This document shows, piece by piece, positions 24,027 to 52,336 of a DNA stretch of 64,000 nucleotides. The stretch's first letter is position 1, and every line of letters starts with the position of its first letter. Source of the DNA: Planctomycetaceae bacterium (lineage in GTDB: Bacteria > Planctomycetota > Planctomycetia > Planctomycetales > Planctomycetaceae). The stretch spans positions 77,110-141,109 of the forward strand of contig JAWKTX010000014.1 of assembly GCA_041398825.1 (NCBI GenBank), given 5' to 3'. The position numbers and the translations under genes are program-made. The notes below the pieces were generated by a model. That model was not told where the DNA came from, made no database searches, and worked only from the letters and a program-made list of their open reading frames with translations.

Positions 24027-24959
24027 CTACGACGGCACCGGGAAACTGTCCAGCATCGCTCGGATGATCTGACCAGCGCGGTGTCGATGTCCTTCCCGGA
24101 TAGCACCTTTGCAGACAACACGGTGGGCGAGCACAGGAATGGCGACTTCTTTCACGTCGTCAGGGATAACGAAACTTCGTCCTTCCGCCATGGCGAGGGC
24201 CTGAGCAGCACGGTAAAACGTCAATGCCCCGCGGGTGCTGACACCCAGCACCAATTCGCTGTGATTGCGTGTCTTCGTCACCAGGTCGAGCATGTAATCG
24301 GCAACGGAATCTTCAACGGTGATGGCGGTGACGTCTTTTTGTAATGCGACCACTTGTTCGGCATCGACGACAGCCTGCAGAGTATCGACAGGCTGCCCTT
24401 CACGGTGTTGTGTCAGAATCTGTCGTTCCACGCTGCGTTCCGGGTAGCCCAGATCCAGACACATCATGAATCGGTCCAGTTGGTTTTCGGGCAAAGGATA
24501 AGTTCCCTCAAACTCAAACGGATTCTGAGTCGCGATGACTAAGAACGGCGTCCCGAGCTTATGGGTAACCCCTTCTATCGACGCCTGATTTTCACTCATC
24601 GCTTCCAGCAATGCGCTTTGAGTCCTGGGTGTCGTACGATTAATTTCGTCTGCAAGCAGGACGTTGGTAAAGACGGGACCGGGTCGGAATTCGAACTCAC
24701 CAGTCCCTGGTCGGTAGACGTTGGCCCCCAGGATATCACTGGGAAGGAGATCCGGCGTAAACTGCAGACGACTGAACTGACAACCGAGGGTTTTTGCCAG
24801 CGCGCGGGCCAGCGACGTTTTTCCGAGCCCCGGCGCATCTTCCAGCAGAATATGGCCACCTGCCAGAAGTGCAACCACCGACAATTTAATCGTCTTTTCC
24901 TTGCCGAGTACCGCCGATTCAACATTCGCGCGGATCTTTCCAATCACTTCGTGGCCCAC
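24027..24959 (-). CDS. MoxR-family AAA+ ATPase
   Basis: The 310-aa ORF has Walker A APGLGKTS, Walker B VLLADEINR and the typical MoxR (AAA_3) length and C-terminal lid. Confidence 0.92.
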   Translation of the reverse strand: MGHEVIGKIRANVESAVLGKEKTIKLSVVALLAGGHILLEDAPGLGKTSLARALAKTLGCQFSRLQFTPDLLPSDILGANVYRPGTGEFEFRPGPVFTNVLLADEINRTTPRTQSALLEAMSENQASIEGVTHKLGTPFLVIATQNPFEFEGTYPLPENQLDRFMMCLDLGYPERSVERQILTQHREGQPVDTLQAVVDAEQVVALQKDVTAITVEDSVADYMLDLVTKTRNHSELVLGVSTRGALTFYRAAQALAMAEGRSFVIPDDVKEVAIPVLAHRVVCKGAIREGHRHRAGQIIRAMLDSFPVPS

Positions 24960-30768: not shown

Positions 30769-30923
30769 TTGCACACAACGTCCGCTGAATAGAAAACTTG
30801 TTTCAACGATTGTGAATCGGTAGCCTTTGTCCGCAGCAAGCGAGATTCAAGACACCCGGACTGCCGCACCTGTCTGTTGCAGAAAAGGCGTCCATGTAAC
30901 GACCTCGGGAAGTTAGTCCCCCC

Positions 30924-31304
30924 ATGAATTCACCGAAGAATGTTTTTGAGTTTGACCAGCAAGGGAATGTCCTGGTTGTCACACCGAATGGGCCATTCAT
31001 GGAATTCCGCGACAATGATATTCGCAATGCCTACAACGATGCCTACCGACTCTTGTGTGCAGAAGACGTGAAGCACCTGCTGATCGATTTTTCTCGTCTG
31101 GATTATTTTGGTTCTACCTTTGTAGGAATACTGATTCGGCTGTCAAAGAAAGTTCGTGGCGATGGAGGTGAGGCGTATCTCTGCCATCTGACCGACAACA
31201 TGCGACAGATGATGAAAACTTTGATGTTGCTTGAAAACACGAAGACAGACTTCTTCTGGCGGCAGTGTGGGTCTCTGGAAGAAGGCCTGGCTTCGCTGAA
31301 ATGA
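30924..31304 (+). CDS. STAS-domain protein (anti-sigma-factor antagonist-like)
   Basis: The 126-aa ORF reads VLVVTPNGPF...LLIDFSRLDYFGSTFVGILIRLSKKV...MMKTLML, the typical SpoIIAA/STAS layout. Confidence 0.75.
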   Translation: MNSPKNVFEFDQQGNVLVVTPNGPFMEFRDNDIRNAYNDAYRLLCAEDVKHLLIDFSRLDYFGSTFVGILIRLSKKVRGDGGEAYLCHLTDNMRQMMKTLMLLENTKTDFFWRQCGSLEEGLASLK

Positions 31305-31397
31305 CAGCCTGCGGGTCAGCCAGGTCAGACTGTTTTCCAGCCCATAACTGTTTGCAGGGCTCCATTCCGCAGATGGGCTGCAGCCGCTCTTATGGCA

Positions 31398-33731
31398 TCA
31401 CGTTTTCTGTTCGCGCCGGGCAATCAGAATTGCCGGCAATAACAGCAGATCGCCGACCAGAGCCAGCAGGAGCAGAGTGACCATCAGGATCGCAAAGCGA
31501 CTGGTAGGTACAAAATCACTGAATGAGAAGATGAACAGGCCCAGCCCGCACGAGACAGATGTCTGTATCATGGCAGCGCCGCAGTGCTGCAGGGCGTAAA
31601 GTGTGGCGTGTTTTCGATCGTAACCTTGTGCGGAACCGCGACGAAAAAACGTGAGGAAATGAAGTGTGTCGTCGACGGCCACTCCGAGGGCCACACTTGC
31701 TGTCATGACGGAGCCAATATCCAGCGGCTGATTCAGCCATCCCATCATTCCAAACGCAACAACAATAGGAAAGACATTTGAAACCATGGCGACGAGACCA
31801 TTGATGATTCCTGCTTCGACGATTGTCATGGTCAGAGTAATAACCGCCAGTGCCGACAGCAGACTAGAGAACAGGTCCTTTAGTAACCGCCCCTGAATCT
31901 CGTGTACGAGCGGCATGATGCCGGATGTCGAAACCGAGACCGAAGAATACTTGTCGGCATTCTGGATCAGGAATTCCTGCGATGCCTGATCTACCTCCCG
32001 CAACAGTTGACCGTAATCGACCGGATGAAGTGCGCTTGTGCGGGCCGTCATTCGCCAGTATTCGCCGTTTTCGTCAACCCGAAGCATGTCCGCCTGCTGG
32101 AATCCGGCTTTCGACAAAGCGATGGCACGGTTCAGAGCATTGATGCGCATGACTCGTGGAAGATTGCTTTCTTCCGGGATGGGAGGGAAGAAGGCCAGTG
32201 CAGAGGTTGTGCGCGAGAGTGATGGCCGTTTTGAAAGGGATCGATCAATTTCGTATAACAATTCCATACGCTGGCGGTCGTGCAGCCTGCAGTCTTTTTG
32301 AAATGTGACCAGGATTTCGATGGGAACCAGCGGTCCGATATGATCTTCGAGCCATTGGTAATCCTGCAGAATTCGGCTGTCGCCTGGAAACAGCGTCTCA
32401 ACACGGATTGAGGTTTTCACACGCGGCAGACCACAGGCACAGATGATCATGAACAGAATCAGAATGACCAAAGGTAACCGTGTTCGCTGAAGCAGACCGG
32501 CCAGAAATCGCCATGCGTCTGTGTGTTGTTTTGTCTGATCATGGGCAGTCTCCAAACGTGCAGATGCTGTGTTCAGGCTCGAAGTTCTCTTCACGGGAAA
32601 CAGCAGCAGCAATCCCGGGACGAGTGTGAGTACAACGGCGGCGGTGAGAATGACTCCGATAGTCGCATAGATGCCGAACTGTCGAATGGGGGTCAATTCG
32701 CTGACGATCAGAGAAGCACTGCCCATTGCGGTTGTGAGAGCAGAAAGCACACAGGGAAGCCAGCCCTTTTGAATTGCGGCTATAGCCGGGGAAGATGGAT
32801 GGGTTTCGCTGGCAAGTGATTCGAAGTAATAGTTGGACAGATGAATTCCGCCCGCGACGGCAAGGACCTGAATCAGTGGCGGAAGAATAATCAACAGGGC
32901 CGACAGGGTTTCGCCGGTGTAGTAGATCACTGCCAAAGTTGCTCCCTGGCAGAACGTTGCACATCCAAACACAATCAGTGCCGCACGAAATGACCGAAGC
33001 GACAGCCAGCAGAGCAGCATGATCATCAGTGACGAAGGGGCTGCGAATGTCGCGAGAGATTTTTGCGAGGCTTCATCAACCGTGAGTCCGTCAATGACCG
33101 GCCCGGCAAGCTTCAGCTCGGACTCTGCCTGACCTGTGATGCTGGTGCAGATTGTTTTGAGTTCAGCGACCAGTTCGGCACGGTGCCGAAGTCCTTCTTT
33201 TGTGACCGTGACAATCAGGCAGGTCGTCAATCCGTCCGGCCCGATCAGGAAACCCTGCATTCTCTGGACCGCAACATCCGCGGGAATGGCTCGTTGAGAC
33301 GAAGGCGAGTCTATTGCGTCGGAATCAGAATCGATCACACCGGACACAGATGAAGAACGACCGGTTCCGCCCCTGGTCATTTGGAGGAGAGTTTCTCGTC
33401 CGCTCAGTACAGAATATATCCAGGGTTTGGGGTCTGCATTATGCAATGCGGATTCGCTGCGCAGCTGTGCGAGAAGTTCGTCGAGAACGGGGTTCTTCCA
33501 GGTGCAGCCTTTCCAACTGAGCACGACGACATCACCGGGGCCAAACTGTTCCACGAACGCATCGTATTTCATTCGAGGTGCGAATGAATGCCCCACCCAG
33601 TCCAGCGGTGAATTGTTGTTTGATTGCAGTGCCTGGCTGGCGCCATAAACGACAAAGGGAACAAGGATGCCCGTATAAATCAGGAGCAGGCGCAATCTTG
33701 CAGTCAACGCAGGAGCCAGCTGTGTGTTCAT
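31398..33731 (-). CDS. MMPL/RND-superfamily (sterol-sensing-domain type) lipid exporter
   Basis: The ~777-aa ORF has two 6-TM bundles, each preceded by a large loop; this is the HpnN/MmpL-like topology. The start at 33731 gives an ATGA overlap with the stop of the upstream ICMT-like gene. The track start is 33746. Confidence 0.8.
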   Translation of the reverse strand: MNTQLAPALTARLRLLLIYTGILVPFVVYGASQALQSNNNSPLDWVGHSFAPRMKYDAFVEQFGPGDVVVLSWKGCTWKNPVLDELLAQLRSESALHNADPKPWIYSVLSGRETLLQMTRGGTGRSSSVSGVIDSDSDAIDSPSSQRAIPADVAVQRMQGFLIGPDGLTTCLIVTVTKEGLRHRAELVAELKTICTSITGQAESELKLAGPVIDGLTVDEASQKSLATFAAPSSLMIMLLCWLSLRSFRAALIVFGCATFCQGATLAVIYYTGETLSALLIILPPLIQVLAVAGGIHLSNYYFESLASETHPSSPAIAAIQKGWLPCVLSALTTAMGSASLIVSELTPIRQFGIYATIGVILTAAVVLTLVPGLLLLFPVKRTSSLNTASARLETAHDQTKQHTDAWRFLAGLLQRTRLPLVILILFMIICACGLPRVKTSIRVETLFPGDSRILQDYQWLEDHIGPLVPIEILVTFQKDCRLHDRQRMELLYEIDRSLSKRPSLSRTTSALAFFPPIPEESNLPRVMRINALNRAIALSKAGFQQADMLRVDENGEYWRMTARTSALHPVDYGQLLREVDQASQEFLIQNADKYSSVSVSTSGIMPLVHEIQGRLLKDLFSSLLSALAVITLTMTIVEAGIINGLVAMVSNVFPIVVAFGMMGWLNQPLDIGSVMTASVALGVAVDDTLHFLTFFRRGSAQGYDRKHATLYALQHCGAAMIQTSVSCGLGLFIFSFSDFVPTSRFAILMVTLLLLALVGDLLLLPAILIARREQKT

Positions 33732-34777
33732 GACGCGCGACGCCATGCGATGGCTTCGTCATTCCCGATCTGATCTTCCGTTTCCGCATTCCCAGCTTGC
33801 GATGCATTTTCAGAATCACTGCACGCTTCCGCAAACGAGAGTATTCTGCAGGAGGGATTGGTGAGTGAGTTGCTGGCCGGCATGGTGTTGGCTGCCGTCT
33901 GCCGGCGCCCGAGAGCTGCCAGGGGAAAGAAGGGGTAGCCAGGGACGTCTTCACAATATGTCTGGTACGATCGGCCCAGATAGAACTCGAGTCGCCGATC
34001 TTTGAGCACACTGCCGACAAAGATGTAGATGGTCCATGTGCCGGTTAGCAGAGCATGGTCGAAGGACATCCGGGGAGTAAACCAAATCAGCCCAAGGAAA
34101 CTCAGGTAAACGGGATGCCGAAGTATGAGGTACAGGCTGGTTGGCACAAAATCGCGTCGTGGTTGTCGGGTTCCGTTCCACCAATGCATCCATTGTGTCC
34201 AGCCTGTCTGATAACCGAGTCCCGTAAGACTGATACTGTAAAGAAGTGAGATCCATGACAACAGAAATGCCGCAAGCATGAGATTGGCCGGGAGCCCGGA
34301 CAGATCCCAGATCAAATGGGGAGTGGATTTCCAGAATCCAAACATCAGCATCAGACTCGCGCAGGTCGCCAGACAGAAGAAGGCTCCATAGAACTCCGGG
34401 GATATCCATTTACGGAGGCGATTCCGTGTAAACGGGTGAAGCAGGATGCTGTGCGGAATTGCGAACTGCAAAGCCAGCAGGGCATCAGTCAGAACCCAAT
34501 GACTGCTGTCTCTGAATGCGCCAAATCGCAGAAACGAAAACAGATAGACAACGGTCAGGGCAAACACGGCCTGGGTACCGACGCCAACGACGAGCCCGAC
34601 GGTTCTCTGCCATTGCTGCCCGTCCCCTGTCCTGTCAACGGAAGGGTTTTTCAGCAGATCAGGGTGTCCTGTCAGCTCGTTCGGTTCCTTCCGGGCTGCG
34701 GGGCGCATCTGTTCGTCAGGGCCCGTTTCCGCTGGTTCTGGTGTTGGTAGCTGATTGTTGATGGAAAGATGATTCAA
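33728..34777 (-). CDS. membrane-embedded ICMT/PEMT-family methyltransferase
   Basis: The 349-aa polytopic ORF has the C-terminal motif LYLILRHPVYLSFLGLIWFTP, typical of the isoprenylcysteine carboxyl / phospholipid methyltransferase family. Confidence 0.65.
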   Translation of the reverse strand: MNHLSINNQLPTPEPAETGPDEQMRPAARKEPNELTGHPDLLKNPSVDRTGDGQQWQRTVGLVVGVGTQAVFALTVVYLFSFLRFGAFRDSSHWVLTDALLALQFAIPHSILLHPFTRNRLRKWISPEFYGAFFCLATCASLMLMFGFWKSTPHLIWDLSGLPANLMLAAFLLSWISLLYSISLTGLGYQTGWTQWMHWWNGTRQPRRDFVPTSLYLILRHPVYLSFLGLIWFTPRMSFDHALLTGTWTIYIFVGSVLKDRRLEFYLGRSYQTYCEDVPGYPFFPLAALGRRQTAANTMPASNSLTNPSCRILSFAEACSDSENASQAGNAETEDQIGNDEAIAWRRAS

Positions 34778-34792
34778 GAACGGATCACCTGA

Positions 34793-35635
34793 TCACAGGG
34801 ACGATTGTTTTTCGGCGATGAAGCATCCGTACTTCATCGCTCTCGTCTGATAGGCATCCAGAATCGTCTGGAACCGATCAAGAAAAATAAGCTGGCCCCG
34901 ATCTACGATTTTGGCAACCGATCGCATGGCTGTCCTGTTCACTCGGTCACGGCAGATTTCCCAGGTGCGGTACACCTGATCGGTCCAGTCGAAGACCTTC
35001 GTAACGGTGAGACCTGAATCGCTCAGCCATTGCACATAGTCTGCTTCATTGCCAAGAGATGGACAAAAGAAGCCTTCGCAGACATCGTAGACTTGTTGTC
35101 GTCCCACGTCGGTCAGCGGATCATCGCCAGCAAGCCACGCGCAAATTCCAACCCGTCCGTCGGGGCGCAACCAGTTCGTCATTCTCCTGAAGAAAGCTGG
35201 CTTGTCGAACAGATGTTCGGTGCACTCAATGCTCCAGGCAACATCGAAAGAGTTGTCTGCGAATTCCACAGTCTCAGCATCGTGGCAAATAAATTTTGTA
35301 CGACTGGAGGTCCGATGCCATCGGGATGACAGGGATGCCCAGTTTCGCTGAAAGGGGCTGAGGGTCACGCCGGTCACACGGCACTGGTGGTGTTTTGCCA
35401 GATGGATCGAGGATCCTCCCATGCCACATCCAATGTCGATCACGTCTGACTGATCGCGAATGTCGATCTCTTGAATCATTCTTTCTGTAAGCTGCCGGGC
35501 CGCAATATCAGGTGCTTCGTCTGCTTCCCACAGACCGTGGTGAATGTGTTGTCCCCACAGCAGTCTGTAGAACAACGTCGAAACGTTGTAATGGGAACGG
35601 ATAACCTTCTTCTGGACATCAGGGCACGAGATCAT
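34793..35635 (-). CDS. class I SAM-dependent methyltransferase (tocopherol/CFA-synthase-like N-terminus)
   Basis: The 280-aa ORF reads HYNVSTLFYRLLWGQHIHHGLW...VIDIGCGMGGSS...RPDGRVGI. Confidence 0.8.
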   Translation of the reverse strand: MISCPDVQKKVIRSHYNVSTLFYRLLWGQHIHHGLWEADEAPDIAARQLTERMIQEIDIRDQSDVIDIGCGMGGSSIHLAKHHQCRVTGVTLSPFQRNWASLSSRWHRTSSRTKFICHDAETVEFADNSFDVAWSIECTEHLFDKPAFFRRMTNWLRPDGRVGICAWLAGDDPLTDVGRQQVYDVCEGFFCPSLGNEADYVQWLSDSGLTVTKVFDWTDQVYRTWEICRDRVNRTAMRSVAKIVDRGQLIFLDRFQTILDAYQTRAMKYGCFIAEKQSSL

Positions 35636-35688
35636 GAAAGGTCTTCGACATGAAGGGGGCAGACGGGTCGATCAGGAGGCTGCTGTCA

Positions 35689-36486
35689 CTATGGAGTCAC
35701 GGAAAGGACACCATGAATTGTCAGTTGGTCGGTGACACCAACTGCGCCGAATGCCTTTGAAAATGGGCGAATGCCATACTGGGTCTGCAGGATCGCGAAG
35801 CGAGTTCGCAGCAGGTGCTTGCCATCCTTCTCTTCAAGTTCCGCGTTCAGCTGAAGTGGCCGTGTGACGCCATGCAGAGTAAACTTTCCGTTAAGAACGT
35901 ACTGCGGAAGTCCCCGGCGACTTTTCTGTGATGATGCCTTTGATGAATCGATTTGGAACGTTGCCGTCGGAAAGCGCTGAACATCCAGTACTCCTGAACC
36001 TTTCATATTTGCGTTCACCTGCTGTCGGGTCGAGGCGTCTGTGGAACCGGACAGCCCTACTGCGCGTCGGGCGGCGTTCGTATCTGCGTCAAACGAACGC
36101 ATATCGAATACCACGGAGCCCGCGTTCTGATCGGTATCCAGTTTGACAGAACCGCTTTTAATTCGTCCTTCGACGCCGTGATCGTGCCCCAATCCTGTTT
36201 TACCAACAAAGATATAGACGCGACTGGCGACCGTGTCGATATCACCGGACTGTGCTGCGGGTTGCTGGCTGGTTTCAGGTTGCTGTCCGGGGGCAGTTGT
36301 CTGAGGATTCGCCGGGTCGACGACCACTGTGCCTGCGGGATTGCCGAACACCGCTGTCACAAGTGAGGTCATGGCCAACATCATCACGCTCAGACCGATC
36401 AACCATGGGTTGATGACTGGGCGGAATGTGTCGTGCACGACGTTTGTTGAATCGAGGTCTGTGAATTGACTGGCTGGTATCGACAA
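35689..36486 (-). CDS. YceI-family (polyisoprenoid/lipid-binding) periplasmic protein
   Basis: The 265-aa ORF has an N-terminal TM/signal segment. YceI motifs are RVYIFVGKTGLGHDHGVEG..., MRSFDADT and LNGKFTLHGVTRPLQL. The TTG start is preceded by a strong SD (gggaggaag). Confidence 0.8.
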   Translation of the reverse strand: MSIPASQFTDLDSTNVVHDTFRPVINPWLIGLSVMMLAMTSLVTAVFGNPAGTVVVDPANPQTTAPGQQPETSQQPAAQSGDIDTVASRVYIFVGKTGLGHDHGVEGRIKSGSVKLDTDQNAGSVVFDMRSFDADTNAARRAVGLSGSTDASTRQQVNANMKGSGVLDVQRFPTATFQIDSSKASSQKSRRGLPQYVLNGKFTLHGVTRPLQLNAELEEKDGKHLLRTRFAILQTQYGIRPFSKAFGAVGVTDQLTIHGVLSVTP

Positions 36487-36571
36487 AGTCTTCCTCCCTG
36501 AATTGATCCTGGCAGTTGCCGACAGCTATGTCTGGTTTTGAAACATCCTGAGCATTACGCGAAAGACGTGC

Positions 36572-36589
36572 CACAATCTGTGGATTGTG
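36572..36589. repeat. 18-bp palindrome CACAATC-tgtg-GATTGTG in the divergent promoter region of the PKS cluster
   Basis: Perfect 7-bp inverted arms with a 4-nt spacer, read directly from the sequence. It lies 86-103 nt upstream of the yceI-like start and ~325 nt upstream of the methyltransferase ATG. Confidence 0.6.
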
Positions 36590-36914
36590 CCCATGGAACA
36601 CCTGGTCTCAATTGCGTCTCTCGCAGGCTGTGCAACAACTGCGTCTGTCGAACGTTGAACAACAATTGAGAAGATGCCATCAAAGTCAACGGATCAGCCA
36701 ACCAGTTGTTTTCACGCCTTTTCGCATTGCGTTGGATACTATAAAAGGCCTCCGCACGTCGATGTGAATTCCAATCGGAACTCAGGAAACTTTGATTCCT
36801 TCTTGTTTTTCCCGAGTATCTGGTCAAGCGTTGGCCACTTTGGCATTCTCTTCTCCATGGAAAAGATTGCGCTAACCGTTTCCCGCTTAGCGCTTGAAGC
36901 AGAAGGACGCCCGG

Positions 36915-37649
36915 ATGGCCTTTTTGCGCGATCGCAATCGTCAGCCAGAATTGATGGATCAGCCGGAACTGGATGACGATCAGCATCGCGCGGCATTGGC
37001 GGGGCTTGGGCGGGTCAACAAATTCAGTCGAACGGATGCCGTGTTGTGGAGTGTGTTGAGACCCCTTGCGGAATCACAGCCGCATCCTCTGCGAATTCTG
37101 GACGTAGCCTGTGGAGGAGGCGATCTGGCAATTCGGCTGGCTCGCCGGTCACGTCGAACGGGCTTGCAGCTGCAGATTGAAGGCTGTGATATGAGCGCCA
37201 CGGCGATTCAGTTCGCATCGGAAAACGCCGCTCATCATGGCCTGACATCTCTGCGATTTACACAACGCAATATTCTTGCGGAACCGCTGGATCATGGCGC
37301 CTATGATATCGTCATGTGTACGTTGTTTCTTCATCACCTGGACGAGGACGATGCTGTCAAAGTTCTGCAAACGATGCAGAACGGAGCGTGTCGGATGGTT
37401 GTCGTTGATGATTTGCTTCGCACGCAGTTCGGGTACTGGCTTGCGTGGCTGGGAACGCGGCTGCTTACGCGATGCCATGTGGTGCATGTTGACGGGCCGA
37501 TGTCAGTCGAGGGCGCGTTCACGTGGAATGAGGCGAAGAATCTTGCTCGCAAGGCCGGTTTGAGTAACGTTCGACTCTCAACACACTGGCCACAGCGGTT
37601 TCTGCTCACCGCAGCGGTTCAAAACGAAGCTTCCCGCGATGAATCATGA
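36915..37649 (+). CDS. class I SAM-dependent methyltransferase (type III PKS-associated type)
   Basis: The ORF reads MAFLRDRNRQPELMDQPELD...LRILDVACGGGDLAIRLA...DIVMCTLFLHHL. The ATG at 36915 has the SD aagga upstream. The track start is TTG 36894. Confidence 0.8.
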   Translation: MAFLRDRNRQPELMDQPELDDDQHRAALAGLGRVNKFSRTDAVLWSVLRPLAESQPHPLRILDVACGGGDLAIRLARRSRRTGLQLQIEGCDMSATAIQFASENAAHHGLTSLRFTQRNILAEPLDHGAYDIVMCTLFLHHLDEDDAVKVLQTMQNGACRMVVVDDLLRTQFGYWLAWLGTRLLTRCHVVHVDGPMSVEGAFTWNEAKNLARKAGLSNVRLSTHWPQRFLLTAAVQNEASRDES

Positions 37650-38916
37650 ATCGAACGGTGTGTACGATGTCATCGTCATTGGAGCCGGAGTTGCCGGTTG
37701 TTTTTCCGCTGCTCTGGCAGCGCGCAGCGGTCTGAGAGTTGCTCTGCTTGAAAAAGAAATCATGCCCCGCCCCAAAGTGTGCGGCGGATGTCTGAACCGG
37801 CGTGCGACGCAGTTGCTGCGTCAGGCAGGAGCCGGAAAGGTTCTGGAACAATCGGATGCGAAGCCATTGCGAAATATGGTGATCTGCCTTGCTGGACGCA
37901 GAGCGACCCTTGCGATGAACGATTCTGTTGTTATCGGTCGGGAACAGTTTGACTTCGCACTGATGAAGCTGGCAGTGGAGGCTGGCGTAGACTTCAGGCA
38001 GGGAGTCATTGCGGAAGTGCTCCCCGAAGAACAGGGCTCGTCCGGGAAGTCTGATCAGGCGATTTCCACCCGATGCGTTCGTATTGTTGCAACTGAACTG
38101 GCGCATCTCCCTTTGCCTGATGGTGGGGACTGTGGCCGGGAAACATCGCTTCGAGGACGAGTTGTGCTTGTCTGTGACGGGCTAAGCCAGTCTTCACTTG
38201 GCAGACTCACGGAATTCCGAACGGATGTCCGTCGCGGATCTCGGATTGGCGCATCCATCGTGTGTGATGCGACGCCGGCGGACGGGCATTTGATGAATGC
38301 AGATTTGCTGATGGCTGTCTGCAGTTCGGGCTACGCAGGAAGTGTCTTTCGAAGCGATGGCCGGGTGAATCTGGCTGTCTCCATGGATGCGGAATTCCTC
38401 CGGCAGCAATCATCCATAGCGCATGCTGCTGCCGCGATCCTGAAGAGCGCCGGAGTTCGCCCACCGGAACGACTGAGTGAGCTGATTAGAAGTCGGGAGA
38501 ACGCGGCGAGCCATGCTGCATGCGATGGCATCTGGGTCAAAGGGACTCCGCCTTTAACACGAAGCAGTCCGCGTCTTTCTGCGGATCGTGTTTTTTTGCT
38601 CGGTGACAGTACAGGCTATGTCGAACCGTTTACGGGCGAAGGGATGGCGTGGGCACTTACAGCCGCATCAGCGGTCCAGCCGGTCATTGCAGACGTCGTT
38701 GCATTTGGCTGGACCCCTCAATCTGAACAACGGTGGAACACCATCTTCTCTGCGTCCGTCGGGCGTTCCCAGAGCCTATGCCGCTCACTTTCGAACAACC
38801 TGCGTCGAAAATGGCTTCTGCACCCGATGATGACGCTGTGCCAGTTATTTCCGTTTGCCGCTCAGTCACTTGTCAAGAGAATGAACCGCATGCCTGCCAT
38901 GCTGGAGCAATCATGA
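37639..38916 (+). CDS. FAD-dependent oxidoreductase/monooxygenase (geranylgeranyl-reductase-like fold)
   Basis: The 425-aa ORF has the N-terminal dinucleotide fold YDVIVIGAGVAGCFSAALAARSGLRVALLEKE and a later GD motif (FLLGDSTGYVEPFTGEGM). It overlaps the upstream gene by 11 nt. Confidence 0.85.
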   Translation: MNHESNGVYDVIVIGAGVAGCFSAALAARSGLRVALLEKEIMPRPKVCGGCLNRRATQLLRQAGAGKVLEQSDAKPLRNMVICLAGRRATLAMNDSVVIGREQFDFALMKLAVEAGVDFRQGVIAEVLPEEQGSSGKSDQAISTRCVRIVATELAHLPLPDGGDCGRETSLRGRVVLVCDGLSQSSLGRLTEFRTDVRRGSRIGASIVCDATPADGHLMNADLLMAVCSSGYAGSVFRSDGRVNLAVSMDAEFLRQQSSIAHAAAAILKSAGVRPPERLSELIRSRENAASHAACDGIWVKGTPPLTRSSPRLSADRVFLLGDSTGYVEPFTGEGMAWALTAASAVQPVIADVVAFGWTPQSEQRWNTIFSASVGRSQSLCRSLSNNLRRKWLLHPMMTLCQLFPFAAQSLVKRMNRMPAMLEQS

Positions 38917-40073
38917 ACAGACCCTTCCGGATTCTTGGTCTCGGAACCGCACTGCCAACCCACCATATTGTTCAGACAGAGGCTGCTTCGTTTGCGGAAA
39001 CGTGCCTTGCGGGTCAGGGGGGCGAGGCCCGACGATCATCCACTCTGGTTCAGGCGTTGTACCGTCGCTCGGGTGTAAAGACGCGACACAGCGTCGTTTT
39101 GAATTCGTCCACAAACGGCACCGCTGCGACCCAGGATTTTTACTGGCCGTCAGACACGGAACAGGACCTGGGGCCGGGGACCGCGGCACGTATGTTGCGG
39201 TACGAAACCGAATCTCCACTCCTGGCCCACGATGCAGCATCGCGTGCGATGGAAGAAAGCGGCGTTCGTGCAGATCAGGTAACCCACCTGGTCACGGTTT
39301 CGTGCAGTGGATTTTCGGCGCCAGGTTTTGATTTATCGCTCATCGATTCGCTTGGTTTGTCGCCGCGCACTGCGCGTACACATGTTGGCTTCATGGGATG
39401 CCATGGAGCGTTGAATGGCCTTCGTGTGGCCGCGGCGTTTGCCAGTTCTGATCCGAATGCTGTCGTTCTGGTTTGTGCGGTAGAGATTTGCACACTGCAC
39501 CATCAGTACGGATGGGACCCTCAACGTATCGTTGCAAATTCGCTGTTTGCAGATGGTGCCGCAGCCGTTGTGGGTCGTGCCGCAGACAGTAAACATACGT
39601 CTTCGTCGGACGAGACATCCGAATCAGGGGGACACGCGACAGGGCCATCCCTCGCGGTGATCGCGCATGACTGTTGCGTGATCCCTGACACTCGGGAAAT
39701 GATGACCTGGCGCATTGCCGATCATGGGTTTCAGATGTCGCTTTCTCCGGAAGTGCCCGATGTTATTACTCGCCAGTTGGCTCCCGTACTGATCGCTTTT
39801 CTGGCCAGGCACCAACTGACGATCGAGCAGGTAGGAAGCTGGGCAGTTCATCCAGGTGGGCCGCGAATCCTGAAGGCTGTTGCAGATGTGGCTGGGCTGA
39901 CCGATGAGCAGCTGGCCCCTTCACTGGGAATTCTGGAGCGATGCGGCAACATGAGTTCGCCCACCGTTCTGTTTATCATTGACGAATTGCGTCGTCGGTC
40001 CGCGCCAATGCCCTGCGTTGTGATGGGATTTGGTCCGGGACTGAACGTCGAAATCGCCCTGATCAACCACTGA
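38913..40073 (+). CDS. type III polyketide synthase (chalcone-synthase-like)
   Basis: The N-terminus MNRPFRILGLGTALP is present. The Cys-His-Asn triad contexts are VSCSGFSAPG, WAVHPGGPRIL and CGNMSSPTVLF. The ATG at 38913 overlaps the upstream stop (ATGA). The longer track ORF from 38733 is an out-of-gene extension. Confidence 0.9.
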   Translation: MNRPFRILGLGTALPTHHIVQTEAASFAETCLAGQGGEARRSSTLVQALYRRSGVKTRHSVVLNSSTNGTAATQDFYWPSDTEQDLGPGTAARMLRYETESPLLAHDAASRAMEESGVRADQVTHLVTVSCSGFSAPGFDLSLIDSLGLSPRTARTHVGFMGCHGALNGLRVAAAFASSDPNAVVLVCAVEICTLHHQYGWDPQRIVANSLFADGAAAVVGRAADSKHTSSSDETSESGGHATGPSLAVIAHDCCVIPDTREMMTWRIADHGFQMSLSPEVPDVITRQLAPVLIAFLARHQLTIEQVGSWAVHPGGPRILKAVADVAGLTDEQLAPSLGILERCGNMSSPTVLFIIDELRRRSAPMPCVVMGFGPGLNVEIALINH

Positions 40074-40138
40074 GATCAACCACTGAGATCAACCACTGAG
40101 ATCAACCACTGAGATCAACCGCTGAGATCAACCGCTGA
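40061..40138. repeat. 13-bp tandem repeat x6 (4x gatcaaccactga + 2x gatcaaccgctga)
   Basis: Read directly from the sequence. Unit boundaries are 40061, 40074, 40087, 40100, 40113 and 40126. The first unit supplies the PKS stop codon and the last unit supplies the stop of the convergent SLC13 gene. Confidence 0.95.
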
Positions 40139-42014
40139 ATGGGAACAACATCGGAATCAGGATTGTGGCGGTTAGCCACAGCAGAGTGTTCAGTGGCAGT
40201 CCGACTCGCAGGAAGTCGCTGAAACGGTAACCGCCGGGCCCGTAAACCATCATGTTTGTCTGATAGCCGATCGGCGTTGCGAAACTGGCAGACGCCGCAA
40301 ACATCAGAGCGATCAGGAAAGGCCGCGGGCTGACTTCCAGCAGTCTGGCAGTTTCCAGGCAAAGTGGAAACATCAGTGAAGCGACCGCATTGTTGGAAAC
40401 CATTTCCGTCAGGATGGATGCGATCAGATAGAAACAGATGAGCGCCGCTACGGGCCCGAATGATTCGGTGGCTTTGACCAGGGTTTGAGCGACCGCCGCA
40501 GCGGCCCCGGAATTTCGCAGTGCGTCGCCCACGGCAAATGAAGCAGCAATGGTGATCAGTACCTGCCACTCGACACTTCGTCGAGCATCGCCCGATGAAA
40601 GACAGCCGGTCACTACAACCGCGCTTGCGATCAGCAGAGCGGCAACGGCCGTGTCAACCAGTCCGGTCGTCATCAGAATCAAAAGAATGGCAAACAGGCT
40701 GAGCGCGATCCAGGCGCGATCGCTTCGAAGTGGCCGCCAGTCTTCCACGCTGCTGACCAGATAGAAATCCGTACTGTTTCGGTTCGCTCGAATGAAGTGG
40801 GGACGCGTTTGCATGAGCAGTGTATCGCCCGGGCGCAGTTCGATGTCGCCCACTTTGTTTGTCAGGCGAGCTGCGTTTCGATGGACGGCAAGCACCGCTG
40901 CATTGTAGGTCGCCCGGAAATCCGCTTCCCGAATCGTCTTGCCCACCAGCGGCGACGTTTCGGAGACGACGGCTTCCACCAGTTGCCGTCGGCGTTGCTG
41001 ACCGGGAGAAACCTGATACTCAGGATCCGCCGCAGGCAACAGGCCACCGATCCGTTCAAGTTCAACAATGCTCGAGACGACTCCTGTAAAGACCAGCCTG
41101 TCACCAGCGACCAGCATTTCTTCCGGACTCACCGGTGCGATGATGCGACCTTCCCGATCGATCTCAATCAGAAACAGTCCTGGCAGGTGACGGAGGTTGG
41201 CCTGTTCGACGGATTGCCCAATCAATCTGCATTCGGGCTGGACCATCATTTCGACGAGGTATTCGCGACGCGAATCGCCCAGTTGTTCCAGCAGTTCCTT
41301 TCGCTCGGGCAGCAGGCGTGTTCCCAGCAGCAGCAGATATCCCATGCCAATCAAAGCATAGGGGATCCCAATCACAGAGATCTCGAACAAGCCCAGTGGT
41401 TTCAGTCCTTCGCGGAATCGCTTTGCTGCAATGGACTCAGGGGCGGGTTGTGAATCCGATGACTGTGTGTCTGAGTTGATCTGATCTGGCTGCTGTTCCT
41501 GCAGCAATGCATATTCGTCCCGAATCTTCCCATCGATCAACAGATTTGTACTGGTGCCAATCAGAGTGCAGGTACCACCAAGGATTGCCATGTAAGAAAT
41601 AGGGATCAGCAGTTTTGATGGAGAGATGTTTCGGCGGCGACACCATTCGATCACGATGGGCATCATCATCGCAACGATGGGGGTGTTGTTCAGAAACCCG
41701 GACAGCGGCACAATCAGGAAAGACAGACGCGCGATCGCGCGGCGCTGTGAACGAACGCTGCCCAGTACTCGCTGACCGATAAAGTCAAGAAGTCCGGTTT
41801 CCCGCAAAGCAGCCGAAATGATGAACATTCCTGCGACCGTCAACATGCCGGGGTTCGCAAATCCTTTGGTAACCTCAGCCGGCGAAATGATGCCAGCTAC
41901 GGAAAGCACGGCCGCCGCAAATACAAAAACAACATCCGGCGTAGCCCAGTCCCGTACAAGCGCGATAAATACCATCAGTGTGGTAATGAGCGTGAACCAA
42001 GCTTCCCAACCCAT
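40128..42014 (-). CDS. SLC13/DASS-family anion permease with two central TrkA-C (RCK_C) domains
   Basis: The 628-aa ORF has polytopic N- and C-terminal halves flanking two RCK_C-like repeats (...VQPECRLIGQSVEQANLR...VAGDRLVFTG and ...VSETSPLVGKTIREADFR...RPGDTLLMQ). Confidence 0.85.
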   Translation of the reverse strand: MGWEAWFTLITTLMVFIALVRDWATPDVVFVFAAAVLSVAGIISPAEVTKGFANPGMLTVAGMFIISAALRETGLLDFIGQRVLGSVRSQRRAIARLSFLIVPLSGFLNNTPIVAMMMPIVIEWCRRRNISPSKLLIPISYMAILGGTCTLIGTSTNLLIDGKIRDEYALLQEQQPDQINSDTQSSDSQPAPESIAAKRFREGLKPLGLFEISVIGIPYALIGMGYLLLLGTRLLPERKELLEQLGDSRREYLVEMMVQPECRLIGQSVEQANLRHLPGLFLIEIDREGRIIAPVSPEEMLVAGDRLVFTGVVSSIVELERIGGLLPAADPEYQVSPGQQRRRQLVEAVVSETSPLVGKTIREADFRATYNAAVLAVHRNAARLTNKVGDIELRPGDTLLMQTRPHFIRANRNSTDFYLVSSVEDWRPLRSDRAWIALSLFAILLILMTTGLVDTAVAALLIASAVVVTGCLSSGDARRSVEWQVLITIAASFAVGDALRNSGAAAAVAQTLVKATESFGPVAALICFYLIASILTEMVSNNAVASLMFPLCLETARLLEVSPRPFLIALMFAASASFATPIGYQTNMMVYGPGGYRFSDFLRVGLPLNTLLWLTATILIPMLFPFSG

Positions 42015-42533
42015 GATGAATTCTCTTCTTCCCTGTTGGTCAGGGATGCCCGAAACTTTTTCTTGCTGTCGTTCGTGTTAAGCAGGTTGATTCACATCGG
42101 AACACATTCAGGTTCGAGTGAGCAATTGTAAGAATACAGTCCCTGCTCTCTCAGACGTCGGATTACCCGGATTTGTTCTTCACGCCAGCTAGGCACTACC
42201 TGCCCGTGCTGCCAGCGTGGTGAAGCCCCACGATGCCTGCCAAAGCCCTCAATGCAGAGTTCCAAGTGCGGAGATTCACGGAGAACGTCTCCCGGTTTGT
42301 GGTTTCAGATTGTACGACAGGTGTTCATTAGAAGGGAATTGGCCTCATGGGCGGTATCCAATTCGGGATTCGAACCGGGAATTCTACCTGCTGACACAGG
42401 GAGGCGTTGGGGTTAAGATGGCCGGACCTGCCATTACGTCGTGTCTGGCGATGGCAGGAAGATACGACTGATTCGTCCTGTTGTTTCCAGCGGTTGGGAT
42501 GAGTTCATCAATCCGCATTGCGAGAATTCAATC

Positions 42534-43973
42534 ATGTTCCCCAGCTTCATGAACCGCCGCACGTTTCTGGGCCAGGCAGGATTAAGCCCCGGAGCTGCTG
42601 CTCTGGCGGCAATGATGGCCGCAGATTCAAACGTCGGCAAAGGAGCGACCCCCGAATCAGCCGGGTCAGCTGTGGTCGGCCATCAATCGGGATCTCATTT
42701 TCGGGCCCGGGTGAAGCGAGTCATCTTTCTGTGTATGGCAGGTGGTCCGTCGCACCTGGAGACTTTTGACCCAAAGCCGGCACTGGCGAAACTGGATGGT
42801 CAGCCAATGCCCGAATCCTACACGGCAGGCCAGCCTATCGCTCAGTTGCAGGGCCAGGCACTCAAGTGTCTGGGACCTCAGACCCGATTCCGTTCGTGCG
42901 GCCAGAACGGCCTGGAGATCAGTGAATTTCTGCCGTGGCATCAGAAGATGGCAGATGACATTTGCGTCCTGCGGTCGCTGGTGACTGAGCAAATCAACCA
43001 CGACCCGGCCCACACATTCATGAATACCGGGACGGCCATCAGTGGTCGCCCCTCTATGGGATCGTGGGTGAACTACGGACTTGGAAGTGAGGCACAGAAT
43101 CTTCCGGGGTTTGTTGTTATGACCAGTGTTGGAGGGCGAAATCCGCAGCCGATCGCATCACGACAATGGTCTGCTGGATTTCTTCCGGGCCGTTTTCAGG
43201 GTGTGGAGTTCAATTCTACGGGTTCTCCCGTGCACTATCTTGACACGCCCCCGGGTGTCAGCATGGAAAGTCAGCGAAGACTGCTGGATACGGTTCGCGA
43301 GCTCAACCTGCATCGCAATCGCAGCCATCCCAATCCTGAACTGGAAACTCGCGTGAGCGCATACGAGATGGCATTTCAGATGCAGATGTCGGTGCCAGAA
43401 CTGGTTGATATGTCAGATGAACCGAGGCATATTCTGGAAATGTACGGGGCAACTCCAGGAGACGGATCGTATGCATCCAACTGTTTGCTTGCCCGTCGAA
43501 TGGCAGAACGCGGGGTGCGGTTTATTCATCTTTATCATCGCGGCTGGGACCATCACGGAGGATTAGTCCAATACATGAATACCTGTTGCGGCCTGACGGA
43601 TCGACCCACCTGGGCTTTGATTCAGGACTTAAAACAACGCGGCCTGCTCGATGACACTCTGGTTATCTGGGGTGGAGAATTCGGTCGTACACCAATGTTC
43701 CAGGGAAAAGGCGGAGCGGGTCGGGACCATCACATTAAAGGGTTTTCGATGTGGATGGCAGGTGGTGGCATCAAAGGCGGGACCTCTTACGGGGCGACAG
43801 ACGAATTGGGATACAACGCTGTTTCGGATGTTGTACATGTGCGTGATTTACATGCGACAATGCTGTACATGCTTGGCCTGCAGCATGACCGACTGTCTCT
43901 GAAGTATCAGGGGTTGGACATGCGGTTGACAGGTGTCGAACCGGCACGCGTGATTCATGACATTCTGACATAG
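42534..43973 (+). CDS. DUF1501-domain (sulfatase-like) protein with a Tat signal
   Basis: The ORF begins MFPSFMNRRTFLGQAGL with a twin-Arg motif. It contains MAGGPSHLETFDPKP, RGWDHH and WGGEFGRTP, the hallmark DUF1501 motifs. The ATG at 42534 is preferred over the track start at 42441. Confidence 0.88.
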   Translation: MFPSFMNRRTFLGQAGLSPGAAALAAMMAADSNVGKGATPESAGSAVVGHQSGSHFRARVKRVIFLCMAGGPSHLETFDPKPALAKLDGQPMPESYTAGQPIAQLQGQALKCLGPQTRFRSCGQNGLEISEFLPWHQKMADDICVLRSLVTEQINHDPAHTFMNTGTAISGRPSMGSWVNYGLGSEAQNLPGFVVMTSVGGRNPQPIASRQWSAGFLPGRFQGVEFNSTGSPVHYLDTPPGVSMESQRRLLDTVRELNLHRNRSHPNPELETRVSAYEMAFQMQMSVPELVDMSDEPRHILEMYGATPGDGSYASNCLLARRMAERGVRFIHLYHRGWDHHGGLVQYMNTCCGLTDRPTWALIQDLKQRGLLDDTLVIWGGEFGRTPMFQGKGGAGRDHHIKGFSMWMAGGGIKGGTSYGATDELGYNAVSDVVHVRDLHATMLYMLGLQHDRLSLKYQGLDMRLTGVEPARVIHDILT

Positions 43974-49722: not shown

Positions 49723-52167
49723 TCAGTGCTGGAAAAGGAATTCCTTGCTGTTGATGATGGCCCATGCAATGTCTTCCAGAGCGCGGGTGCGGTCGTCATT
49801 GGCGGCAATGTGGGCTGCGGCAATTTCCTGTTCGCGCGGAGAAGCTTCTCGACTGAGTGCAGCCAGGTAGAGAGAGTTGATGATCTCCGCGTCCGATTTT
49901 CCTGCCGTGATCATTTGATGGACAACCCCGGCATCGGATCGGAGTTTGTTATGGACAGTTGGCCCATTGATCAGCTGGAGAGCCTGGCTGAGGTTGCTGT
50001 CCGTACTGCGTTCGCATTCACAGGGTAGTTCGCGTTGTGGCTGCCCGAAGACCTGAAGAAACTTATGGCCTTCCGGCGGGTCAACCAGATCGACAGCACA
50101 TGTGCCTGCCGGCATTCCCGGGAATTCTTCCTGAAGGCCGGTGACGGTGCAAATTGCATCGAGCAGTTGTTCTGCGGTTAACATCCGTGTTGTTGCATGG
50201 CTGAAATAAATTTCGTCGTCTTCATTGAACTGATTTCGCCGGGAACTGAGCTGGTAGACGCGGCTTGCCATGATTGTGCGAATCAGGTGCTTTGCGGAGA
50301 ACCCGCTCTTGACAAGTTCGTCGGCAAGATAGTTCAGCAGTTCCGGGTTGGAAGGTGGATTAGAATCGCGGAAATCATCGACGGGATCAACAATTCCCCT
50401 GCCAACGACGTGTCCCCAGATGCGATTGGCAACGGATTTTGCGAAGAAGGGATTCTTCGGGCCGGTTAACCAGTTGGCAAAGATGACTCGACGATCCTGA
50501 TCAGCAGGAACATCAACGTCGCCTTCCAGTAGAAGTCGCGTCTTCATGACCTGGCCGGTCCGTGGCTGAGTCACCTCACCACCTCCGCTCACGAAGATGA
50601 ATTCATCATCCGGTAGTCCGGTTTCTTTTCGTCCAACTCGTTTGAACGCTGCTGCCAGGCCGTAATAGTCGTCCTGTGTCCATTTTTCGAAAGGATGATT
50701 GTGACACTTGGCACACTGGATACGAACGCCCATAAACAGCTGGGCAGTTGTCTCTGTCGCATCGATTTCGTCACGGCTGGCCTTCCAGTAATAGGCAGCG
50801 GGGTTGGCTTGGGTGCTTCCGGTGGCGGTCAGGAGTTCTCGCGTGAACTGATCCAGCGGGGTATCCTGATTGACCACATCAAATAACCACCGTCGGAACT
50901 TATGAACGCCGGTCGCGGACATCTTGCGGCTGTTGCTGCGAAGAAGGTCGGCCCATTTCATGGACCAGAAGCGAGCGTAGTCGTCGCTTGCCAGCAGACG
51001 CTCGACCAGTTGTGCTCGCTTGTCCGGGGATGCATCCGAAATGAACTGCAGAGTTTCATTTGTGTTCGGCAGGCGTCCGGCAAGGTCCAGTGTGGCCCGT
51101 CGAAGGTAGTCTGTATCACTGCATAATTCGGAGGGCTGAATCTGAAGTTGCTGCAGTTTTCCAAAGACGAGCTCGTCGATCCGATTGTTTGGTGATGGGT
51201 TGGGCCACTGAAAATCCGGTCGGTCGGTCAGGAATGTAATCATGGTGGTCGACATGCGATCCAGGTACCGGGCCAGAATAGTTGCTTCACCGCGCCCTTC
51301 TCGCCGAACGACTCCGGCAGCCGAAATCGTAGCAATGTTTTCGTCAGAAGAATCGAAAGCGGTCAGGGCAGTCACGTCGCGGATGGTGCCATCGCTGTAG
51401 TAGCCGTTTACGACCAGTTGCTGGCGGTCTGCCCCATCCCGCAAAACGCGAGGCGATGGCAGCAGTTCGATGCGATCCAGCGTCGGAGTTCCTTCTGGTT
51501 CGGTTCGCATTCCTTCCGCAATCCATTGCCGCAGGACAACGTGGCTGGCATCGTTAGCGTCGAGTCGACGACCACCACCATGCGCGACTTCCATCAGCGG
51601 CTTTCTCAGCAACAGACTTTCATCCGGTTGAAGCACATTGGAACGACGATTGAAGAACTCACCGCGAAGAGTGACCAGATCCAGTTCCGGATCGTACCCA
51701 CGCAGCGACAGGCGAAAACCGCCTTTTCCAGACGGTGAACCATGGCAAGCTCCCATGTTGCAACCAGACTTTGTCAGCGCAGCGAGAACTTCCGTGTGAA
51801 ACAGAACAGGGCTCGATTGTTCAAAGCCAGTCACAGTCACGGTTGCGGAAGACTCTTTACCATCGACGACGGCTTTGATGGTGGCGGTTCCGTTGCCCGT
51901 CGCTTTCGCGATTCCATGGTCAACAGTGACAACGGCCGGGTTATCCGATTCGATGGTGACTTCGTGAGTCATGTCGCGAATGGTCAGGGTGTCCGGGTTG
52001 GCGGTCACCATCAGTTGTTGGGTTGCACGCGGCCCCTGCAGTACGAATTCTGCTGGTTGAAGTTGCACACTGTCAGCAGTTGGGGCGTCTTCGGCAGCAG
52101 CGAATGCCGAAGTGATGCTCAGGCAAACGATTGCGACGCATCGAGATTTGAAAACGGTCGTCATCAT
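49723..52167 (-). CDS. DUF1549/DUF1553 protein with Big_2 domains (planctomycete PSD family)
   Basis: The signal peptide is MMTTVFKSRCVAIVCLSITSAFAAA, with GAGG 7 nt upstream of the ATG at 52167. Big_2-like sequence is present (NGTATIKAVVDG). DUF1549 is represented by CAKCHNHPFEKWTQDDYY and DUF1553 by FAKSVANRIWGHVVGRGIVDPVDDF. The track ORF extends to 52434. Confidence 0.85.
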   Translation of the reverse strand: MMTTVFKSRCVAIVCLSITSAFAAAEDAPTADSVQLQPAEFVLQGPRATQQLMVTANPDTLTIRDMTHEVTIESDNPAVVTVDHGIAKATGNGTATIKAVVDGKESSATVTVTGFEQSSPVLFHTEVLAALTKSGCNMGACHGSPSGKGGFRLSLRGYDPELDLVTLRGEFFNRRSNVLQPDESLLLRKPLMEVAHGGGRRLDANDASHVVLRQWIAEGMRTEPEGTPTLDRIELLPSPRVLRDGADRQQLVVNGYYSDGTIRDVTALTAFDSSDENIATISAAGVVRREGRGEATILARYLDRMSTTMITFLTDRPDFQWPNPSPNNRIDELVFGKLQQLQIQPSELCSDTDYLRRATLDLAGRLPNTNETLQFISDASPDKRAQLVERLLASDDYARFWSMKWADLLRSNSRKMSATGVHKFRRWLFDVVNQDTPLDQFTRELLTATGSTQANPAAYYWKASRDEIDATETTAQLFMGVRIQCAKCHNHPFEKWTQDDYYGLAAAFKRVGRKETGLPDDEFIFVSGGGEVTQPRTGQVMKTRLLLEGDVDVPADQDRRVIFANWLTGPKNPFFAKSVANRIWGHVVGRGIVDPVDDFRDSNPPSNPELLNYLADELVKSGFSAKHLIRTIMASRVYQLSSRRNQFNEDDEIYFSHATTRMLTAEQLLDAICTVTGLQEEFPGMPAGTCAVDLVDPPEGHKFLQVFGQPQRELPCECERSTDSNLSQALQLINGPTVHNKLRSDAGVVHQMITAGKSDAEIINSLYLAALSREASPREQEIAAAHIAANDDRTRALEDIAWAIINSKEFLFQH

Positions 52168-52336
52168 GATGGAACCTCGGATTACGATTTGTTCGCTTTT
52201 CGGCGAGCAACAGGCGAGTCGTCGTTTCGGAGCTGTTGGCACAAGTCTGTGACAAGTTTGCAAAGACTCTTTCGACTTCTCCAGAGACACGAGATTCTCA
52301 CGAATCCCGTAACCGTGACGCTTTACAATGGGTCTT

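Follow-up and report, generated by a model that had tools for sequence, protein, structure and literature searches.

Two divergent operons at the locus

The DNA examined here is a 64,000-nucleotide stretch from a Planctomycetaceae bacterium (assembly GCA_041398825.1, contig JAWKTX010000014.1, positions 77,110 to 141,109), and by the window we mean this stretch at its full length. The list of open reading frames (ORFs), together with Pfam and NCBIfam matches, reveals two divergent, tightly packed operons of seven genes in total that span positions 31398 to 40073 (Table 1). On the plus strand, co-directional genes for a methyltransferase dependent on S-adenosylmethionine (SAM), designated MT1, an oxidoreductase dependent on flavin adenine dinucleotide (FAD) and a type III polyketide synthase (PKS) follow each other in this order. 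The minus strand is transcribed in the order YceI protein, second soluble methyltransferase (MT2), MddA-like membrane methyltransferase and MMPL transporter of the resistance-nodulation-division (RND) type, and we refer to these four genes as the module. An initial annotation, made from the sequence without database searches, had described seven genes in two divergent operons, and all seven were found where it had placed them, each with a strong family match.

Table 1. Genes of the two operons and the region between them (positions in the window)
Feature	Position	Strand	Evidence
MMPL/HAE3-type RND transporter	31398..33746	-	782-aa ORF; Pfam MMPL E 1.6e-19
Integral-membrane SAM methyltransferase, MddA/NnrU-like, ICMT superfamily	33728..34777	-	NCBIfam MddA, Pfam NnrU
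MT2, soluble class-I SAM methyltransferase, Methyltransf_11/CMAS-like	34793..35635	-	Pfam E 1.8e-18
YceI-family lipid-binding protein	35689..36486	-	Pfam YceI E 8.8e-20
Divergent intergenic region between the operons, 407 bp	36487..36893	.	sequence read
MT1, SAM methyltransferase, HidA/Mtr counterpart	36894..37649	+	NCBIfam PRK06202
FAD-dependent oxidoreductase, geranylgeranyl-reductase superfamily, HidB/Fdo counterpart	37639..38916	+	TIGR02032
Type III PKS, 386 aa, predicted long-chain alkylresorcinol synthase, HidC counterpart	38913..40073	+	Pfam Chal_sti_synt_N/C

Several of the genes overlap. The MT1 gene, which is likely to start at the ATG at 36915, overlaps the FAD oxidoreductase gene by 11 nt, and an ATGA stop/start joins the latter to the PKS gene. 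The PKS ORF as listed begins at 38733 and is over-extended; its homologues begin at MNRPF, and this together with the ATGA overlap sets the true start at 38913. An ATGA overlap likewise joins the MMPL start to the stop of the membrane methyltransferase gene, and for this reason the MMPL protein probably begins at the ATG at 33731 rather than at the ORF end at 33746. Scans of 30800–40400 for promoter and terminator consensus sequences gave scores at or below the shuffled expectation and were uninformative on the operon ends, and no riboswitch or other RNA in Rfam was matched in the cluster, including the 407-bp intergenic region. A search of all 64 kb found no gene for a fatty acyl-AMP ligase (FAAL) or an acyl carrier protein (ACP), which extends to the whole window what had been noted earlier for the cluster.

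The PKS carries the Pfam domains Chal_sti_synt_N and Chal_sti_synt_C (E 2.5e-24 and 2.7e-19) and the catalytic triad C163 (in FMGCHGA), H313 and N346, which had been read as intact from the sequence and is indeed invariant in 101 homologues. Also invariant in these homologues is W266, which aligns with a Leu of the pyrone synthase PKS18. Trp281 of ArsB is reported to favor resorcinol formation (PMC9927152), and we suspect that W266 occupies the column of this residue. The homologues are almost all from Planctomycetota, to whose type III PKSs the enzyme is 44–72% identical; the best is from a Fuerstiella metagenome-assembled genome (MAG; 68% identity). Identity is 55% to the enzyme of Gimesia panareensis, which also lies in a methyltransferase-FAD-PKS operon, and ~50% to loci labelled Cyanobium or Synechococcus. 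The enzyme and those of the loci so labelled fall in a single neighbor-joining (NJ) tree, which was built without outgroups and without the characterized HidC, G. maris, ArsB, SrsA, BpsA and RppA sequences. The closest solved structures are Ectocarpus PKS1 (4B0N) and PKS18, and no chain named as a tetrahydroxynaphthalene (THN) synthase is among the 60 best Protein Data Bank (PDB) matches. On these grounds we predict that the PKS belongs to the long-chain alkylresorcinol (HidC/Gimesia maris) group, and the identity to the G. panareensis enzyme, the shared operon and the best-matching structures agree with the earlier assignment to the phenolic-lipid type rather than to the THN/RppA type. As a side observation, three MAG contigs with a PKS ~50% identical to that of the window (L065, L066 and L079) are labelled Acidovorax caeni, Synechococcus sp. 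UW140 and Cyanobium sp. The first two hold the full methyltransferase-FAD-PKS operon and L079, of 2.2 kb, the PKS only. These contigs form one group in the tree, and the one labelled Acidovorax therefore probably comes from a picocyanobacterium and received its label by a mistake in binning or naming.

MT1 matches NCBIfam PRK06202 (E 1.4e-66, 224 bits) and the Pfam families Methyltransf_31/25. The FAD oxidoreductase matches TIGR02032 (E 4.4e-31), the QhpG monooxygenase model (E 3.9e-20) and Pfam FAD_binding_3, and its PRxK-CG..C and GD..GY.EPFTGEG motifs are largely conserved in 88 homologues. These motifs, with the TIGR02032 and QhpG matches, place the enzyme in the geranylgeranyl-reductase superfamily. 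Ring hydroxylation, as proposed for HidB, is a plausible role by analogy. A halogenase role was considered, the best PDB match being the flavin-dependent halogenase 5BVA, and was rejected as the leading idea because that match covers only the N-terminal FAD-binding part and no WxWxIP-type motif was visible by eye.

The plus-strand operon is a new member of a published family, the hidABC-like or planctomycetal three-gene biosynthetic gene cluster (BGC). Its gene order is kept in nearly all of 80 loci collected by their PKS, with the MT1 gene directly 5' of the FAD gene. Milke et al. (2024) found 96 type III PKS genes in 131 planctomycetal genomes, 58 of the 96 in an operon that runs from methyltransferase through oxidoreductase to PKS, and this operon matches Cyanobium hidABC (hierridin B) in gene order and with 48–55% protein identity (PMC10896814). 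In Corynebacterium glutamicum the PKSs of Gimesia maris, Rhodopirellula baltica and Stieleria maiorica gave 5-pentadecyl- and 5-heptadecylresorcinols, and co-expression of the G. maris methyltransferase and oxidoreductase led to one extra methyl group, probably on carbon (PMC10896814). A 2025 review keeps the name three-gene BGC. The initial annotation had chosen srs and bpsAB as its comparators; this closer published family was overlooked.

The membrane methyltransferase was compared with the NCBIfam MddA model (NF045656), which aligns over profile positions 2–234 of 238 with E 2.3e-25 and 89.3 bits against an equivalog cut-off of 270. The match to Pfam NnrU (E 1e-4, 22.3 bits) is under the cut-off of 24.7, and Pfam ICMT (PF04140) is not matched by the window protein, a single homologue (P0234) reaching E 0.012. 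RHPxYLSFLGL and KDxRL motifs are invariant in 20 homologues, and conservation is confined to a core of approximately residues 57–290, the N- and C-terminal tails not being conserved. In an AlphaFold2 (AF2) model the protein is an all-helical membrane bundle (pLDDT, the predicted local distance difference test score, of 73). As structure searches gave no significant match, placement draws on the NCBIfam and Pfam matches and on the motifs, by which the protein belongs to the ICMT/NnrU/MddA superfamily as a related subfamily rather than as an MddA equivalog, and is not demonstrably of the BpsB type. The earlier label "ICMT-family" thus holds at the superfamily level, the models matched being MddA and NnrU instead of Pfam ICMT.

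For the other three module proteins the families named at the outset, namely a YceI protein, a second SAM methyltransferase and an MMPL/RND pump, were each recovered. MT2 is the most conserved module gene (52–74% identity across loci), and its best solved relatives (3BUS, phosphoethanolamine N-methyltransferase and MitM) do not fix its substrate. The YceI protein (Pfam, 72 bits against a cut-off of 23.7) has, by hydropathy and Pfam, a single N-terminal hydrophobic segment at residues 24–42, a Pro/Gln-rich linker and the YceI domain at 83–257, and it weakly matches PDB entry 3HPE, deposited as a "conserved hypothetical secreted protein"; we predict a signal-anchored periplasmic lipid-binding protein. 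The MMPL protein (Pfam, 70.5 bits against 20.5) matches NCBIfam HAE3 with E 8.9e-37, under the cut-off, and stays far from the cut-offs of the MmpL3 and HpnN models (17.7 and 47 bits against 1400 and 752). Its hydropathy profile is that of an RND transporter, with transmembrane segment (TM) 1, a large loop, TM2–6, TM7, a second large loop and TM8–12, and orthologues with 43–59% identity adjoin the PKS operon or the module in many loci.

Linkage of the module to the PKS operon

The neighborhood of the cluster was compared in two sets of loci. The first is the PKS-anchored set of 80 loci from GTDB species genomes, 38 of which are assessable, with a flank of 4 kb or more on each side, and in which the module was called when at least two of YceI, MT2 and the MddA-like protein were found. 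The second is anchored on the MddA-like protein and comprises 80 metagenome loci from an alignment-based search, a scan with the single protein as query having given no match; loci were judged when the flank was at least 7 kb on each side (n = 13). Module genes are present in 25 of the 80 PKS-anchored loci, including 19 of the 38 assessable ones. When PKSs more than 90% identical are collapsed, 34 of 79 non-redundant lineages (~40%) have module genes, and the PKSs of these 34 are 44–68% identical to that of the window and occur throughout the NJ tree, down to its deepest branches. In the reverse direction, the PKS operon is found in nine of the 13 MddA-anchored loci with enough flank. Across the MddA-anchored set the string YceI-MT2-MddA-like is nearly invariant and is usually followed by MMPL.

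Eleven gene layouts were observed among the module-bearing lineages. Thirteen lineages have the divergent arrangement of the window and seven the same arrangement without an MMPL gene. In four the module is convergent and 3' of the PKS, among them the cultured Gimesia panareensis, where it follows the PKS directly. Elsewhere the MMPL gene has moved 3' of the PKS, and all genes are co-directional in a single operon, with overlaps or ~60-nt gaps, in L057 and L112; smaller variants make up the rest. The membrane methyltransferase gene itself, which in the window lies ~4 kb from the PKS gene in the divergent operon, is 3' of the PKS and convergent to it in L055 and L100. Since the linkage persists through eleven layouts, up to fusion into one operon, we conclude from gene order that it exceeds chance and probably reflects functional coupling. 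Synteny of the minus-strand genes with the PKS, put forward earlier as a check on the cluster, was thus examined in both directions and is found in many relatives through repeated rearrangement. The linkage appears to be new and, judged by these loci, contrasts with the description of genes adjoining the three-gene BGC as not conserved (Milke et al., 2024; PMC10896814). In the literature searched, no paper pairs YceI with a type III PKS, and MMPL and alkylresorcinol are mentioned together only in two unrelated genome studies of Mycobacterium avium.

Relatives differ in the transporter. In L132 (4220–7529) and L163 (14241–17114) a MacB-type ABC system occupies the usual position of MMPL. The string in L132 runs YceI, MacB-type ABC ATPase, FtsX permease, MT2, MddA-like protein and a separate FAD enzyme, and L163 has genes for two FtsX/MacB_PCD permeases next to a PKS operon that is fragmented. 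In both loci one exporter seems to have been exchanged for another that is not its orthologue. Replacement of an RND by an ABC transporter supports a role in export, and it suggests that the transporter is the variable part of the module and the YceI-MT2-MddA-like trio its core. The fragmented operon of L163 (10873–13737) consists of a 131-aa C-terminal piece of a PKS and a 193-aa methyltransferase, which are either pseudogenes or the result of frameshifts in a long-read assembly.

Several relatives also carry candidate regulators. Genes for a BlaI-like protein (Penicillinase_R) and a BlaR1-like M56 sensor are divergent to YceI in these loci, and MT1 is directly preceded by a DUF1559/SBP_bac_10 gene. 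The set of BlaI-like, BlaR1-like and DUF1559 genes is found in the closest relative, L001 (5280–7863), and in L010, L034, L053, L091, L081 (Gimesia), L105 and L144, and a partial set in L103 and L107. The BlaI-like protein is 59–71% identical across these loci, whose overall layouts differ, and its gene remains linked to YceI in convergent layouts of module and PKS operon as well. Such a sensor-repressor pair suggests that expression in these relatives may be induced by a signal. The window has no BlaI-like, BlaR1-like or DUF1559 copy, and the 407-bp intergenic region lies at that position. A k-mer search upstream of YceI for a shared operator was given up, as all the words it yielded seem to stem from conserved coding sequence.

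A hypothetical pathway and its alternatives

Based on the linkage and on what is reported for related enzymes, we put forward a hypothetical mechanism in which the region is probably one functional unit, a pathway to a hierridin-type alkylresorcinol lipid joined to a module for tailoring and export. We propose that the PKS takes a C16 or C18 acyl-CoA from primary metabolism, a source suggested by the lack of a dedicated ligase or ACP, and that three malonyl-CoA are then added and aldol cyclization gives 5-pentadecyl- or 5-heptadecylresorcinol, as shown for related enzymes. MT1 would next methylate the ring, for which related enzymes provide part of the evidence, C-methylation being reported in Gimesia maris and O-methylation for Cyanobium HidA (PMC10896814). 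The flavoprotein may then hydroxylate the ring to give a hydroxyquinol or a quinone-type head group. Going by the linkage, MT2 and the membrane MddA-like enzyme could add further methyl groups, the latter acting on the membrane-seated lipid as BpsB does in Bacillus; BpsB and DquB provide the precedent for a membrane methyltransferase that acts on type III PKS lipids (PMC9827899). Finally, the proton-driven MMPL pump would lift the finished lipid from the cytoplasmic membrane to the periplasmic YceI barrel, which would ferry it through the periplasm, with the outer membrane or the medium as its destination. The export role is backed by the MacB-type swap in L132 and L163, the N-terminal anchor of the YceI protein and the RND topology of the MMPL protein. 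The annotation had suggested a multiply methylated, exported phenolic lipid; the synteny and the type of the PKS agree with this, and its triple methylation and envelope export have linkage and family membership as their basis.

Several observations weigh against such a unit. Half of the assessable PKS loci (19 of 38), including that of the cultured Polystyrenella longa, have no module nearby, and conversely the module occurs without a PKS within 7–10 kb in L122, L124/L156, L132 and L164. Neither the module nor the PKS operon, then, strictly requires the other in cis. YceI proteins are known to bind polyisoprenoids and fatty amides rather than alkylresorcinols, and searches with phmmer, with a profile against the PDB and with Foldseek on the AF2 model found no solved relative of the membrane methyltransferase (none with E < 0.001). 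The G. maris oxidoreductase gave no detectable hydroxylation in the heterologous host (PMC10896814). The picocyanobacteria-like loci L065 and L066 also have no module.

These same loci bear on the possibility that the module is an independent system that methylates or traffics another lipid, such as a polyisoprenoid quinone, a hopanoid or a carotenoid derivative, and lies near the PKS through a shared envelope role or shared regulation. The module stands alone in L122, L124/L156 and L164 and has its own FAD enzyme in L132, many PKS operons do without it, the MMPL protein weakly matches HpnN and Patched-type sterol/hopanoid transporters, and polyisoprenoid binding is, as is generally known, characteristic of YceI proteins. 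We nevertheless consider such independence unlikely, as the linkage is kept through the eleven layouts across PKS lineages 44–68% identical to that of the window, two loci fuse all genes into one co-directional operon, isoprenoid biosynthesis genes are not consistently nearby, and the other neighbors in the window are essentially unconserved in the 80 PKS-anchored loci.

A different alternative accepts the coupling and changes the product. The pathway might make an alkyl-benzoquinone that serves as an electron carrier in the cytoplasmic membrane, like the polyketide quinones of actinobacterial pkqABC and srsABC, with MMPL and YceI used for distribution or homeostasis of the quinone. The enzyme logic is that of pkq and srs, with a resorcinol-forming PKS, a methyltransferase and a flavin oxidoreductase (PMC9927152), and three methyltransferases and a hydroxylase could in principle build a fully substituted, ubiquinone-like ring. 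On the other hand, lipids are usually moved off the inner membrane by just such a pair of an RND or MacB-type pump and a periplasmic carrier, the hierridins made by the closest characterized operon are methoxyphenols and not quinones, and the gene order is unlike that of pkq and srs, so that we give this product little credence. That the membrane methyltransferase is a true methanethiol S-methyltransferase (MddA), which forms dimethylsulfide and plays no part in the polyketide pathway, is very improbable: the MddA equivalog is its best curated match (E 2.3e-25 over the full profile) and some homologues carry the JGI label "methanethiol S-methyltransferase", but the score of 89 bits is far under the equivalog cut-off of 270, and the gene sits in the nearly invariant string with YceI and MT2, often overlapping the MMPL gene and frequently beside the PKS operon.

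We return to the coupled alkylresorcinol pathway with tailoring and export, and to how it compares with known systems. The hidABC operon (Cyanobium sp. LEGE 06113) and the planctomycetal three-gene BGC are alike in the order methyltransferase, FAD enzyme, PKS, in overlapping genes and in a starter expected from the cellular acyl-CoA pool, but have been described without the four-gene module that is attached here. In srsABC (Streptomyces griseus) and pkqABC (Mycobacterium smegmatis/Streptomyces), a PKS, a methyltransferase and a flavin oxidoreductase/hydroxylase likewise act on a long-chain phenolic lipid (PMC9927152), whereas there the PKS gene is first and here it is last, and no transporter or lipid carrier is described in those operons while the window has both. 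A type III PKS is also combined with a polytopic membrane methyltransferase of the ICMT superfamily in bpsA-bpsB (Bacillus subtilis) and dquA-dquB (Sporomusaceae; PMC9827899). There the methyltransferase gene is directly behind the PKS gene, whereas here it is in the opposite operon with YceI, MT2 and MMPL, and the protein differs from BpsB and DquB in matching MddA/NnrU models rather than Pfam ICMT and in being longer, with a core of ~250 aa. The only glimpse of such a module in the literature is the pentacistronic operon of "Saltatorellus ferox", which encodes a lipoprotein, a lipid/isoprenoid-binding protein, two methyltransferases and a type III PKS (PMC10896814). Compared by description only, it likewise joins a lipid-binding protein and two methyltransferases to an alkylresorcinol-forming PKS, but its PKS is in a clade that incorporates methylmalonyl-CoA and no oxidoreductase or RND pump is reported (PMC10896814).

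Pump genes beside lipid biosynthesis genes are familiar from the MmpL-dependent export of polyketide-derived lipids in mycobacteria and from hopanoid export by HpnN. In the mechanism proposed here the partner of the pump is instead a YceI barrel, with a type III PKS product as the presumed substrate. Reconstitution of the three-gene set yielded only the core alkylresorcinol and a singly methylated form (PMC10896814). The linkage names four further candidate genes, for two methyltransferases, a lipid carrier and a pump, and in some lineages also a candidate regulator pair (BlaI/BlaR1-like), and from it one would expect the lipid to carry more methyl groups and to leave the cytoplasmic membrane. 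This is experimentally approachable in that the cultured genus Gimesia carries the module, as shown for G. panareensis, and the system offers a test case both for the identity of the YceI ligand and for an RND/ABC exporter swap. A bolder version, which we offer tentatively and hold to be doubtful as a whole, is that the seven genes (up to ten with BlaI, BlaR1 and DUF1559) form one old, conserved planctomycetal system. In this system the alkylresorcinol would be turned into a fully substituted methyl/methoxy alkyl-(hydro)quinone-type lipid, which an RND pump would hand to a dedicated YceI chaperone for passage across the periplasm, which is unusually wide in planctomycetes, to the outer membrane or the outside, and in many lineages a BlaR1-type envelope sensor would switch the system on. 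If true, a trafficking route dedicated to a type III PKS lipid would be described for the first time.

Neighboring genes in the window

Beyond the PKS, 55 nt past its stop and convergent to it, lies a gene on the minus strand (40128–42014) for a CitMHS/DASS-type anion transporter with two internal TrkA_C domains, which is found beside the cluster in no related locus. Indeed, among the window's other neighbors, STAS and CitMHS genes never occur in the 80 PKS-anchored loci, and major facilitator superfamily (MFS) genes gave two weak matches. Further along are members of the planctomycete-specific families DUF1501 (42441–43973), PSCyt2 with PSD1 (49723–52434) and PSCyt1 (54541–56436), whose presence confirms the phylum. 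A DUF1501 homologue is present in several related loci at varying positions, as expected of a multi-copy family. On the other side of the cluster, a 1061-aa ORF at 9617–12802 on the plus strand has an N-terminal TIR_2 domain and a double zinc ribbon, is partly overlapped by a 308-aa ORF on the opposite strand, and is possibly a defense or signaling protein. A BatA/VWA protein (15217–17565) and a MoxR-type AAA_3 ATPase (24027–24959), both components of Bat/aerotolerance-like systems, are encoded on the minus strand ~6.5 kb apart.

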